A stretch of DNA of 64,000 nt. It comes from a virus. Lineage: Duplodnaviria; Caudoviricetes. The stretch lies in the IMG/VR virus record IMGVR_UViG_3300028833_000075, positions 86,579 to 150,578 of that record. One strand, written 5' to 3'. The translations under genes were made by a program, and so were the position numbers. A model generated the notes under the pieces. It was given only the letters and a program-made list of their open reading frames with translations. It had not been told where the DNA came from and did not search any database. Numbering within the stretch: position 1 is the first letter of the stretch; the number at the start of each line of letters is the position of its first letter. Below are positions 11,242 through 42,631 of the stretch, one piece after another.

Positions 11242-11272
11242 TTCTTTCCCCTTTACATGGATTCTCGAATGT
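11242..11272 (-). promoter_or_regulatory. conserved motif (ACATTCGAGAAT....GTAAAGGGGAAAGAA), candidate phage-RNAP promoter
   Basis: matches copies at 21557-21593(-), 21613-21652(+) and 38853-38891(+); oriented into the late operon. Confidence 0.5.
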
Positions 11273-35881: not shown

Positions 35882-36461
35882 TGAAATTGTATTGAAAGAC
35901 TGGCAAACTCACTGTGGGTTCGCCAGTCCACAAAGTAATATAAACATTTACTATTCACCTTTGGCTATTACAAAAACAATTATGCTTGTAAATACCCATC
36001 CTGAAGAAATTGGTTGGAATATGGTAGTAAAGCCTTATAAAGACGGGTATAAAGTTGAGGATATCGTAGTATATCCCCAAAAAGTAAGTCCGGCATATGT
36101 TTCAGTTGACCTTCCAAGGTATGGATTGTGGAAAGCAAACCTTGACGACGAAGTAGAAGCTAATTTGTTTGGAAACGGACATTCTCATGTTAACATGAGT
36201 ACTTTCGCATCATCCGTCGATGAACGTCAGCAGCATGATGAAATCCTGACAAAGAAAAACGGATTTTATCTTTTCCAGATATGGAACAAAAGAAATGAAA
36301 TAAGCTCATTCTTTTATGATATTGATAATAAAATTTTCTATCGACCGGAAAATGTTAACATAATCGTAGAAGAAGCAAATGAGTTTATTATAAACTCTTT
36401 TGAAATCGTACAAGGAAGACATAATCGGATCAACGCTTATGAGGCAGGTGAAGATTTTTGA
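35874..36461 (+). CDS. JAB/MPN metalloprotease (DUB-like)
   Basis: EIGW (catalytic Glu), GHSHVNMSTFASSVD = HxH-x7-S-x2-D. Confidence 0.85.
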   Translation: MNNEIVLKDWQTHCGFASPQSNINIYYSPLAITKTIMLVNTHPEEIGWNMVVKPYKDGYKVEDIVVYPQKVSPAYVSVDLPRYGLWKANLDDEVEANLFGNGHSHVNMSTFASSVDERQQHDEILTKKNGFYLFQIWNKRNEISSFFYDIDNKIFYRPENVNIIVEEANEFIINSFEIVQGRHNRINAYEAGEDF

Positions 36462-37126
36462 ATCTAAGTAAATCTTATGAGTTTTTTAATCCGGATAAAT
36501 GCAAGGAAATGATCCATATTATTGGTTGTGGATCTGTCGGCTCTACGGTAGCTGAACTTTTGGCAAGATTTGGTTTAACAAAAATCTCGCTATATGACTT
36601 TGATACTGTTGAGCCGCATAATATTGTAAACCAGATGTTTGTTCATCGCCAAATCGGAATGCCGAAGGTAGAAGCTGTACGAGAAATTTTGTTAGATATC
36701 AATCCTGAAATGAATGTTAAGATGTATACCAAAGGATGGAACGGCGAGCCTCTGGATGGATACGTATTTCTTGCAGTAGATAATATTGAACTAAGAGCAA
36801 AAATTGTAAAAGAAAACCTATATAATGATTTTATAAAAGCTTTCTTTGATTTCAGAACCGGACTTACAAATGCTGACCACTTTGCAGCAGATTGGTCCGA
36901 ATTTAAAAGCAGAAAAAATTTTTTAAACACGATGAACTTTACACACGAAGAAGCGAAACAAAATACACCTGTTTCAGCGTGTAATGTAGCTCTGTGTGTA
37001 GCTCCTACAGTAAGAATGGTTTGTAATGTAGGAATAGCAAATTTCATCAATTTTGTAAAAGGAGAACATTTGCATAAGCTGATTCCAATTGATGCATTTA
37101 GTTTCTCTGTCGAACCTGTTGGTTAA
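36458..37126 (+). CDS. ThiF/MoeB-family E1-like adenylating enzyme
   Basis: IIGCGSVGS, DFDTVEPHNIVNQ, KVEA, LAVDN...R, DFRTG, SAC. Confidence 0.92.
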   Translation: MNLSKSYEFFNPDKCKEMIHIIGCGSVGSTVAELLARFGLTKISLYDFDTVEPHNIVNQMFVHRQIGMPKVEAVREILLDINPEMNVKMYTKGWNGEPLDGYVFLAVDNIELRAKIVKENLYNDFIKAFFDFRTGLTNADHFAADWSEFKSRKNFLNTMNFTHEEAKQNTPVSACNVALCVAPTVRMVCNVGIANFINFVKGEHLHKLIPIDAFSFSVEPVG

Positions 37127-37150
37127 TATAGGTTAATCTATATTCCAAAT

Positions 37151-37450
37151 ACTCATGCAATGCATAGTGAGAGAAATCTCGAACTCTTAATGTGATTATG
37201 AGTAGCAATTCGCCTGATGAGGGGGTAGGGCTCCTGAAAGAGCTGGAGGCGGCGGACGTCGAAGAAATCCTAGGAAAATGTGGGCAGCGTGATAGAAAAG
37301 TCCTGTAATCTCGGAGGAAATAAGGTAGGCACGAGGGAAAGGTAAAGGGAAGTCAGTTGAAACGCGGTAAACGGTAGATAAAAGGCCTGGATCCTGGGAA
37401 CGTTTCGGTCGTCACTGGAAAGACATATAACGATTTAGATTGCATGGAGT
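37151..37450 (+). ncRNA. retron-like msr/msd ncRNA #1 (upstream of RT)
   Basis: terminal inverted repeats ACTCATGCAAT (37151-61) and ATTGCATGGAGT (37439-50); G37162 right after the 5' repeat; two short stem-loops; purine-rich template ending TTTAG. Confidence 0.7.
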
Positions 37451-37457
37451 GATAAAA

Positions 37458-38588
37458 ATGATTTACATAACAATCAGACAGAAAGAAAAAGAAAAACAAA
37501 TTAGTTGGCTTGATTTAATCAGCGAAGAAGAAATTCCTCTCAGTGATTTCTCTTCGTGCGGCTCTGCCGGAACTGTAACAAGAGCGCTTAATGAGGCAAC
37601 GCCCGAACTGCTTCGCAGAATTAATCCAGAAGAAATGATTAATGTTTTGAAACGGTTTAATACCTCACATGAAAACCTGTTTAAAGCAGACCGTAAAACT
37701 CTGTATCGACATTTCAGCATTCCAAAGAAAACAGGTGGACTGCGGCCTATCGATGCGCCATGTGATGAGCTTCAAAATGCGCTGGATGAACTGAGGATTA
37801 TCTTAACTGAAAAGTTTGGAGTTCTTTATCATACATCGGCCTTTGCATACATTCCGAATAGAAGCACTGTACAGATGGTAAGAAAACATCAGGTAAATGA
37901 ATCAAATTGGTTTTATAAAACAGACGTCAGCGGATTCTTTCCACACACGACACTGAGCTTTACAATGAAGATGCTGTCAATGATCTTTCCTTTAAGTGAG
38001 ATTTGCAAAGTACAGGAAGGATATGCAGAACTGGAAAAAGCTTTAAGTCTTGGTTTCCTAAACGGCGGTCTTCCGCAGGGAACAAAACTGAGTCCGGCGC
38101 TGACGAATATGATTGCTATCCCGATTGATCATCGACTGTTTAATGATCTTGCGCACAAGCGTTTTGTGTATACTCGATATGCAGATGATCTGCATATTTC
38201 ATGTCAGCAGAAATTCGATTCTGAAAAGATGACTAAATACATTGAAAAGGTATTTAAAGAATTTGATGCTCCATGGATTCTGAAGCCCGAGAAAACACAT
38301 TACGGAAGCAGAAAAGGTAAGAATTTTATGCTTGGTGTAGTTCTTAACGCGAACAATGATATTTCGACGGGATGGAGAAATAAGAAGCTTTTCAAAGCAA
38401 TGACAACAAACTTAATTATGGATTGGAAAAATAATAAGTATTGGCCCGCCGATGACGTTCAACAGTACGCAGGGTTATTGTCTTATTATAAAATGGTAGA
38501 GAAAGAATACTTCGATAATCTGGTAGATCACTTTAACAATAAATTCTCTGTAAACCTCAAACAAATTATAAAGGAACTAGTTTCCTAA
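37458..38588 (+). CDS. retron-type reverse transcriptase
   Basis: IPKKTGGLRPIDAP, AFAY, VRKH (NAxxH position), KTDVSGFF, GLPQGT..SP, YTRYADDL, KTH, MLG (VTG position); no maturase or endonuclease domain. Confidence 0.88.
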   Translation: MIYITIRQKEKEKQISWLDLISEEEIPLSDFSSCGSAGTVTRALNEATPELLRRINPEEMINVLKRFNTSHENLFKADRKTLYRHFSIPKKTGGLRPIDAPCDELQNALDELRIILTEKFGVLYHTSAFAYIPNRSTVQMVRKHQVNESNWFYKTDVSGFFPHTTLSFTMKMLSMIFPLSEICKVQEGYAELEKALSLGFLNGGLPQGTKLSPALTNMIAIPIDHRLFNDLAHKRFVYTRYADDLHISCQQKFDSEKMTKYIEKVFKEFDAPWILKPEKTHYGSRKGKNFMLGVVLNANNDISTGWRNKKLFKAMTTNLIMDWKNNKYWPADDVQQYAGLLSYYKMVEKEYFDNLVDHFNNKFSVNLKQIIKELVS

Positions 38589-38598
38589 TTTTACAGTA

Positions 38599-38764
38599 TG
38601 ACATAATGAATTGCATTAAATGCTCAGTGCATGTAATGAACTGATAGGCAACGATACAGTCTATCCAATTGTAATGTTGTACAGCTGCAGAAAATGAAAT
38701 GCTTGATTTTCTGCAGCTGTAAACCTTACAATTGGAATGTCAATAATATATTTAGATCATGTCA
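38599..38764 (+). ncRNA. retron-like msr/msd ncRNA #2 (downstream of RT)
   Basis: inverted repeats TGACATAAT (38599-607) and ATCATGTCA (38756-64); G38608; two short stem-loops; long hairpin 38664-38736; ends TTTAG like ncRNA #1. Confidence 0.7.
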
Positions 38765-38852: not shown

Positions 38853-38891
38853 TGGTGGGGACATTCGAGAATTTACGTAATGGGGAAAGAA
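38853..38891 (+). promoter_or_regulatory. conserved ~40-bp motif copy
   Basis: TGGTGGGGACATTCGAGAATTTACGTAATGGGGAAAGAA. Confidence 0.55.
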
Positions 38892-41673: not shown

Positions 41674-41758
41674 GTCCGTTTGGCCGAGAGGCTTATGGCT
41701 GTAGTCTTGAAAACTACTGAGTGTAAAAGCTCCGCAGGTTCGAATCCTGCAGCGGACG
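41674..41758 (+). tRNA. tRNA-Ser(TGA)
   Basis: GTCCGTT/AGCGGAC; GTAGT-CTTGAAA-ACTAC; long variable arm. Confidence 0.85.
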
Positions 41759-42052
41759 CTTGGAAAAACTAATAGAAATCCAATCTTACTTACTTTCCGC
41801 TCGCAAGAGAACTTTCAAGTAAGAACGGTAGATGCTGTGGCAGAAATATTGCAGTGTGCAAACCTACGGGTCGCTCCCGGCACGAGGATTAGTGAAGTAC
41901 TGAACCAGCTTAGTAGGGTCAGATACCATGAGACTGGCTGAACGGCTAAAACCGGAAACCTTAAACGGAAAACAGGGAGAAACGTTCGGCGAACTGCTAA
42001 TCACAAGGTAACTCAATGATAGGTGAAAGTCCTATCCAGTATCTTTTTTTAT

Positions 42053-42126
42053 GCTGATGTCGCCCAGTTGGCTAGGGAATCGCTCTTGTAAAGCGAACGT
42101 CGTTGGTTCGAGTCCAACCATCAGCT
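42053..42126 (+). tRNA. tRNA-Thr(TGT)
   Basis: GCTGATG/CATCAGC; TCGCT-CTTGTAA-AGCGA. Confidence 0.88.
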
Positions 42127-42225
42127 CTTCAAAACCCGGAAAAGTACATATTGAGTTTTGAGTACTGATCATACTTTTTGTAAATATGTGACCTTCGTCC
42201 GTTGTGGGGTAACAGCGGTCATATT

Positions 42226-42300
42226 GCTCTCGTGGCGCAATTGGAAGCGCGACTGATTTGTAATCAGTAGGCTTTGTGGGTTCAAGTCCCACCGGGAGCT
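42226..42300 (+). tRNA. tRNA-Thr(TGT), second divergent copy
   Basis: GCTCTCG/CGGGAGC; ACTGA-TTTGTAA-TCAGT. Confidence 0.85.
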
Positions 42301-42556
42301 CATTCTCCGTGGACACTTGATATTTATATCATAGAAGTCGGATGGGTTTTAGGAAGTCCTGAACGAAGCCCCTTAAGCGGCACATTGTAGTTGCGGTTGT
42401 GCAGAATTAACCAAGAGGCCGTCTGGAAACGATCTGTTGACAGCTTGGAAAGACAAGCGTTTTCCGTGTCGTTGATGCGGACTTGTGAACCGTCGGAACA
42501 AAGACGTAAAACATGTTCATGAAGCCATGCGATAAAGGTATGGCTTCTATTTTTAT

Positions 42557-42631
42557 TGGGGATTCGTATATTGGTTATTACGCCCGGCTTTGACCCGGGA
42601 AAGGGCGGATCGTAACCGTCATCCCCAGCCA
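42557..42631 (+). tRNA. tRNA-Gln(TTG)
   Basis: TGGGGAT/ATCCCCA-G-CCA; CCCGG-CTTTGAC-CCGGG. Confidence 0.85.

Follow-up and report, generated by a model that had tools for sequence, protein, structure and literature searches.

A phage retron-like reverse transcriptase predicted to serve two noncoding RNAs with conserved scaffolds and hypervariable templates

Can one reverse transcriptase (RT) serve two different RNA templates in nature? To our knowledge, and as far as we could find, the described retrons combine one RT with one noncoding RNA (ncRNA) and act in bacterial defense. The question is raised by a locus in IMG/VR virus record IMGVR_UViG_3300028833_000075, where the gene for a retron-type RT lies between two units laid out like retron msr/msd RNAs. 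The window analyzed is a stretch of 64,000 nucleotides (positions 86,579 to 150,578 of the record) that forms the final part of the 150,578-bp record, which has direct terminal repeats at its ends. The genome encodes terminase, portal, DNA polymerase, primase–helicase, RNA ligase, and a tRNA cluster, and thus belongs to a large tailed phage. A preliminary description of the window, made from the letters alone, had proposed that the RT makes two distinct multicopy single-stranded DNAs (msDNAs). We read the locus as a phage-specific, multi-ncRNA variant of the retron. With a probability of roughly 70%, judged from sequence comparison, it is a retron that a phage encodes and that belongs to a clade not yet described, with a single RT that would serve two cognate ncRNAs flanking its gene and so give two reverse-transcribed DNAs (RT-DNAs). 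Both RNAs are considered substrates of the same enzyme because a shared, covarying, RT-specific scaffold and the geometry of retron priming are found on both sides of the gene. The features of the module, in window coordinates, are as follows.

37151–37450, plus strand: ncRNA unit 1, a1 through a2; match to scaffold model R2 (see below) at 37150–37212, 45.3 bits; a2 preceded by TTTAG
37151–37161, plus strand: unit 1 a1, the 5′ arm of the closing inverted repeat; pairs with 37439–37450
37162, plus strand: unit 1 candidate branching G, unpaired, directly 3′ of a1
37168–37181, plus strand: unit 1 stem-loop 1; 5 bp, GAAA loop
37183–37203, plus strand: unit 1 stem-loop 2; 9-bp stem with one mismatch, GTG loop
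37204–37438, plus strand: unit 1 predicted template, 235 nt, weakly folded, purine-rich, hypervariable; TTTAG end at 37434–37438
37439–37450, plus strand: unit 1 a2; 11 bp with a1, one bulged base
37458–38588, plus strand: retron-type reverse transcriptase, 376 aa, intact YADD; matches in Pfam (RVT_1), PADLOC, NCBIfam, and the PDB
38599–38764, plus strand: ncRNA unit 2, a1 through a2; R2 scaffold match at 38596–38653, 33.4 bits
38599–38607, plus strand: unit 2 a1
38608, plus strand: unit 2 candidate branching G, unpaired
38613–38623, plus strand: unit 2 stem-loop 1
38624–38644, plus strand: unit 2 stem-loop 2; GTA loop
38645–38755, plus strand: unit 2 predicted template; TTTAG at 38751–38755
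38664–38736, plus strand: long msd-type hairpin within the unit 2 template
38756–38764, plus strand: unit 2 a2; 8 of 9 positions pair with a1

Read directly from the sequence, both units run from a1 through a G, two stem-loops, a template, and TTTAG to a2, just as they had been laid out in the preliminary description. That account had also given unit 1 a purine-rich template of about 230 nt without a long hairpin, and unit 2 a classical long hairpin at 38664–38736. The unit 1 template is 66% purine, and the lack of a long hairpin agrees with a fold that is no better than those of shuffled sequences (z = −0.65); unit 2 folds much better than its shuffles (z = −6.9). The two templates have nothing in common beyond chance, in direct or complementary orientation, and are unrelated, as had been claimed. 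Two details hold for the window and not beyond it: the GCAA that follows stem-loop 2 in both units is not conserved even in the closest relatives, and the purine fraction of templates ranges from 0.44 to 0.66 in the family.

Support for a common scaffold comes from covariance analysis. A first model of the 5′ scaffold was built from 16 units (8 upstream and 8 downstream of the RT gene, from the window and eight related loci) and was rebuilt from 70 matches as model R2, whose E-values are rough. A search of the whole 150,578-bp genome with R2 returns exactly two matches, units 1 and 2, both on the RT strand. Among about 240 homologous RT loci drawn from viral, metagenomic, and genome collections (designated by L-numbers, such as L002 and L180; every relative compared is metagenomic), R2 finds 115 + 69 + 35 = 219 matches at E ≤ 0.1, and all 219 lie beside the RT gene on its strand. 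No match was found in 37 bacterial retron RT loci searched in the same run. This search had been proposed as a check on the two-unit description, and its result favors that description.

The stems of the scaffold change in sequence and stay paired, an earlier claim that the larger alignments sustain. Its second stem-loop is characterized by a 9-bp stem and a GTN triloop. Pairing in stem-loop 2 amounts to 91.7% in the MAFFT seed alignment, where six of its nine pairs show compensatory changes, a level reached by none of 500 shuffles; the corresponding values for 70 sequences, in an alignment fitted to the model, are 95.7% and eight of nine. Stem-loop 1 folds in 117 of the 132 distinct scaffolds, and its stem takes 96 different sequences among those 117. 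RNAalifold, applied to seven unit 2 orthologues, predicts closure by a1 and a2 as well as the two stem-loops, and compensatory pairs are present.

The closing repeats and the candidate priming nucleotide follow the same pattern. For each scaffold a downstream partner was sought for the bases preceding the G; partners with a pairing score of at least 9 accompany 99 of 184 matches and 14 of 920 controls at random places. The a1 and a2 sequences vary by lineage and retain their complementarity. The unpaired G occupies a single fixed position of the model (offset 12) in 113 of the 119 units with strong a1/a2 pairing, and a2 is preceded by AG across the family (TGTAG, TTTAG, and similar).

Is the downstream unit a regular part of such loci, as the preliminary description required? 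In the nearest relatives, with RT protein identities of 72–99%, both units occur in the same places without exception; orthologues of unit 1 are found in L002, L006, L007, L009, L010, L011, L012, L025, and L166–L169. Most relatives at 50–57% RT identity also carry both units, and at 41–49% there is often one unit upstream and one to three downstream in tandem. L005 (units at 961, 1228, and 2636) and L025 (900, 1186, and 2677) each have two tandem upstream units and one downstream, and L180 has five scaffold copies at one RT (1160, 2660, 3079, 3600, and 3882). Among 113 non-redundant loci with enough flanking sequence for units to be counted with R2, 41 have two or three units and 42 have one. 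Some of the loci scored as having one unit or none hold diverged units that R2 misses and that can be recognized by eye (L017, L091). Homologous loci generally retain the downstream unit, with exceptions that are taken up below.

Two classes of template are found across the family. Short hairpin templates, typically of about 90–160 nt, have a minimum free energy per nucleotide of −0.36 to −0.58, and the long templates, which fold weakly and typically span about 180–340 nt, have one of −0.12 to −0.30. In more distant relatives, units of the long class also stand downstream of the RT gene, in tandem, and are therefore not merely leaders of the RT message.

The RT itself has retron affinities and stands apart from the bacterial enzymes. 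Its top PADLOC models are all retron RTs, with RT_II-A first (1e-43) and only moderately ahead of I-A, III-A, and XIII. Among NCBIfam models retron_St85_RT comes first, with 157 bits against a curated cut-off of 235, and in the PDB the Ec83 and Ec78 retron RTs match best. YADD is invariant among 19 homologues. Identity falls sharply from 36–52% inside the phage family to at most 31% with bacterial retron RTs. The N-terminal 70 or so residues (window 37458–37670) lie outside the retron RT profiles and the solved retron RTs; this extension is conserved in the family, with M1, Y3, T5, D19, T39, and T41 invariant in 19 sequences. Membership in type II-A (St85/Sen2-like) was considered and rejected, given the St85 score below cut-off and a scan of seven neighboring proteins that found no nucleoside deoxyribosyltransferase-like effector, the partner of that type.

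Retrons are defined by an RT of the retron clade with NAXXH and VTG motifs, an ncRNA closed by a1/a2 with a branching G and msr/msd stem-loops, and an effector (Mestre et al. 2020, PMC7736814). Both units have the RNA features of this definition in the form of an adjacent a1/a2-closed ncRNA, an unpaired G (by its position only), and msr stem-loops; the long msd stem-loop is found in unit 2 and not in unit 1. At the places of the two RT motifs the phage enzyme has ..VRKH, with an invariant H, and STG, for which the family consensus is TVG, as placed by alignments that are not structure-based.

A division between fixed scaffolds and variable templates emerges when closely related loci are compared. 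Identities to relatives with 75–80% RT nucleotide identity (a set that includes L166–L168) are as follows.

Scaffold: 91–95% in unit 1, 73–78% in unit 2
a2: 90–95% in unit 1 (L166–L168), 42–56% in unit 2
Template: 36–44% in unit 1, 45–48% in unit 2

Orthologues of unit 2 have unrelated template sequences and always form the long hairpin; between L167 and L168 the changes in its arms are compensatory. In near-identical pairs (RT identity 96–100%), scaffolds are 97–100% identical and templates 58–100%, mostly 58–95%. L055 and L059 have identical RT genes, scaffolds, and flanks and about 20 scattered substitutions within one template. Between the window and L169 (RT identity 99.8%), 15 of 34 differences fall in the unit 1 template, all inside 37215–37424; this is 15 changes in 210 nt, compared with 18 substitutions in about 3,900 nt elsewhere (Fisher P = 1e-8), and unit 2 is unchanged. 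The template changes comprise 7 transitions, 7 transversions, and 1 indel, whereas all 18 changes outside are transitions.

Summed over ten pairs, substitutions are most frequent in templates (7.8%), less so in the RT gene (2.8%), and rarest in scaffolds (0.45%), and the ratio of transitions to transversions is lower in templates (P = 5e-4). The RT gene and its four-fold degenerate sites serve as the reference, since in some pairs divergent flanks and units that escaped detection confound the contrast of templates with all other sequence. Relative to four-fold sites, templates change faster in 10 of 13 pairs, some of which share a cluster and so are not independent, and the difference is significant in seven. 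It is not significant in L054/L066 and L148/L151, it runs in the opposite direction in L070/L073, and L072/L079 has too few comparable four-fold sites. Scaffolds are thus better conserved than the RT gene, and hypervariability is confined to the predicted templates. It may result from diversifying selection, from recombination of co-circulating variants, or from a mutagenic process linked to reverse transcription.

One familiar source of localized variation in phages can be set aside. The template changes do not single out adenines, and the genome contains no further copy of either template, with or without A treated as a wildcard; for these reasons the locus is not a diversity-generating retroelement (DGR), which would have a variable-repeat target. 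A further kind of change is seen in L012 and L013, whose RT genes are identical: a clean 92-nt indel in the unit 2 template (L012 2642–2868) corresponds to the presence or absence of a second GC-rich hairpin, so that whole hairpin modules come and go.

The proposal that both units are templates is supported, in that every sequence comparison able to tell against it came out in its favor. Several observations weigh on the other side. The RT score lies below the NCBIfam retron cut-off, the NAXXH and VTG motifs of the enzyme are preserved only in part, and PADLOC identifies no retron effector among the neighboring genes, nor is there a classical effector at the locus. R2 finds no unit in 30 of the 113 well-flanked loci, and inspection by eye indicates that the downstream unit is truly absent from a few (L089, L091). 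The pair counts taken from model-fitted alignments are biased toward the model. Unit 1 lacks the classical msd hairpin, and its product of about 230 nt would exceed the longest well-known natural msDNAs, which are about 160 nt.

The absence of a hairpin from unit 1, together with its indifferent fold, leads to the alternative that only unit 2 is reverse transcribed, and that unit 1 is an RT-binding leader that regulates RT translation or titrates the enzyme, its insert being a spacer. The position of the unit would suit such a role, as the helix of a1 and a2 lies against the ribosome-binding site, and a2 shares bases with the purine-rich stretch 8–19 nt 5′ of the RT start codon; moreover, the sequence of the insert is not conserved. 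This explanation nevertheless appears unlikely. Units of the same long, weakly folded type occur downstream of the RT and in tandem, away from any RT start, and unit 1, like unit 2, has retained the G at its fixed position, a TAG ahead of a2, and an a2 complementary to a1. Its insert also evolves faster than four-fold sites and with a different transition/transversion ratio, which is unexpected for a plain neutral spacer. Somewhat less probable still is the suggestion that the scaffolds bind the RT and that the products are not branched msDNA but unbranched cDNA, or an RNA-only ribonucleoprotein such as is found for some defense-associated RTs. An enzyme at most 31% identical to bacterial retron RTs and under the family cut-off, with an N-terminal extension of roughly 70 aa and altered NAXXH and VTG motifs, might make a non-classical product. 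On the other hand, the a1-G-template-TAG-a2 geometry corresponds exactly to retron priming and has been conserved across more than 100 units, and every top match, among profiles and in the PDB, is a retron RT.

The preliminary description had itself raised the concern that the unit 2 hairpin might act only as a terminator or RNase III site, and the location of a long, perfectly paired hairpin at the RT gene's 3′ end does invite this interpretation. Terminal inverted repeats around variable cargo in both units might equally recall mobile elements that lie beside the RT by chance. Both interpretations are close to excluded. No T-run (U-tract in the RNA) follows the hairpin in the window, and in L007, L010, L012, L015, and L086 a separate terminator, a GC-rich hairpin with a T-run, stands after the a2 of unit 2. 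Mobile elements would hardly be present as two copies only in 150 kb, both at the RT, with 219 of 219 family matches on the RT strand. Neither interpretation accounts for a covarying scaffold that unit 2 has in common with unit 1.

A possible partner of the module is the gene that precedes unit 1.

36458–37126, plus strand: E1/ThiF-like gene directly upstream of unit 1; Pfam ThiF E = 9e-25, and the PADLOC E1-E2 models match

In 127 of 164 related loci the corresponding place, directly upstream and on the same strand, is taken by a homologue, and the RT–ncRNA module therefore forms part of a conserved phage operon. For the three proteins further upstream (to about 33850), Pfam, PHROGs, and PADLOC give no match. 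A scan for sigma-70 promoters and terminators found nothing convincing at unit 1 or unit 2, although the promoter type of the host may differ.

If the two units are indeed templates, the following sequence of events may be envisaged. The region from the E1-like gene through unit 2 is probably transcribed as one RNA. The RT would dock on each scaffold and prime from the 2′-OH of G37162 or G38608, copying the template leftwards from the base that precedes a2. The predicted product of unit 1 is a pyrimidine-rich, poorly folded strand of roughly 200–230 nt, and that of unit 2 a hairpin DNA of roughly 90–110 nt. The cargo would be the variable, selectable part of each unit, replaced or mutated while the scaffolds stay fixed. 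What these DNAs do during infection can only be guessed at; a role that depends on DNA sequence or shape, for example in counter-defense or in competition between phages, is one conjecture, and the retron module may work together with the conserved upstream E1-like operon.

A bolder proposal is that the units are exchangeable, fast-diversifying cassettes of DNA cargo. The RT would then make a set of DNAs from two to five templates, which are either under diversifying pressure or rewritten by error-prone copying back into the phage genome, and the set would act with the E1-like operon in infection. We put this forward as a tentative idea, clearly less probable than the two-template reading. If true, it would represent a natural counterpart of engineered retron arrays and would add a new type of variation in viruses, one driven by an RT.

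Two other uses of the predicted DNAs were considered and dropped. Mutual pairing of the two RT-DNAs finds no support, as their complementarity is no more than expected by chance. A role as restriction-site decoys would call for clustered 6-bp palindromes, and 112 distinct templates show no enrichment (z = 1.3–1.4). Unit 1 has five such palindromes versus 2.6 expected (P = 0.11, not enriched); unit 2 has eight versus 2.3 expected, but each of these recurs in the opposite arm of the hairpin.

The likeness to classical bacterial retrons (Ec86/Eco1, Ec78/Eco7, Ec83, St85/Sen2; types I–XIII, PMC7736814) extends to shared RT profiles, a1/a2 closure, the unpaired G after a1, msr-type stem-loops, and a template that ends beside a2. 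Unit 1 occupies the canonical place directly upstream of the RT, and unit 2 has the canonical msd hairpin. The phage system differs in having two ncRNAs per RT, and up to five in relatives, with one of them downstream; one template of about 230 nt has no hairpin, and templates are hypervariable between near-identical genomes. It also resides on a large lytic-type phage genome rather than in a bacterial defense island, with an E1-like operon linked to it in place of any known effector, and its RT is at most 31% identical to those of classical retrons and falls under the NCBIfam cut-off.

Engineered retron arrays, or multitrons, are synthetic, Eco1-based constructs for genome editing that yield several RT-DNAs per cell (bioRxiv 10.1101/2023.07.17.549397). 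They share with the phage locus one RT, several ncRNAs or msds, and a common scaffold with different cargo, an arrangement that is here predicted from sequence; the phage system is natural, its units flank the RT gene, and its DNAs are not known to act as recombination donors. Phage DGRs likewise pair a phage RT with an adjacent template RNA and confine variation to a short, defined region. They differ from the present system, in which there is no variable-repeat copy, changes are not adenine-specific, the RT is retron-like, and the template itself varies.

A survey notes that viral metagenomes contain retron-like RTs (PMC13681634). In the literature searched, which included few subscription journals, we found no retron that naturally has several ncRNAs and no account of phage retrons from this clade; nor was any retron there associated with ThiF or ubiquitin-like genes, and E1/ThiF-like proteins did not appear among the retron partners described. 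The family considered here would thus constitute a distinct clade of phage RTs that are accompanied by two or more ncRNAs each, have no known effector, and stay tied to an E1-like operon. Should both units prove to be templates, multiplexed production of RT-DNA exists in nature, and compact scaffolds tolerate long, non-hairpin cargo, a property useful for retron-based editing. One would then ask what use small DNAs are to phages. With scaffold fixed and cargo variable, the units offer a ready map of the parts that the RT needs.

About 100 nt beyond unit 2, at window 38861–38889 on the plus strand, lies a conserved promoter-like block consisting of TTCGAGAAT, a gap of 5–9 nt, and TAA-GG. It is kept in L002, L006, L025, and L166–L168, of which L167 and L168 have it in duplicate. 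The window contains a further copy, at 11250–11269 on the minus strand, which precedes the minus-strand structural genes, where none is expected by chance; its location there suggests that a new transcription unit starts at the block after unit 2.

The RT clade has hundreds of members on phage contigs from gut, rumen, and termite metagenomes. Megablast and blastn searches of GenBank phages with the region and with each template gave no match, and tblastn with the RT led to a single metagenomic phage, unannotated and 40% identical. Members binned into metagenome-assembled genomes (MAGs; L170–L212) carry labels that are mostly Clostridia (Oscillospiraceae, Acutalibacteraceae, Lachnospiraceae, Defluviitaleaceae), with a few Bacteroidota; they are often on contigs of 100–135 kb that resemble entire phage genomes, and the MAG label may not correspond to the host. 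An Rfam search in E-value mode over window 30–45 kb returned the downstream tRNAs, weak microRNA-like chance matches on the unit 2 hairpin, and nothing else. The tRNA genes, four in number (45–62 bits), are clustered at window 41674–42628, about 3 kb 3′ of the module.

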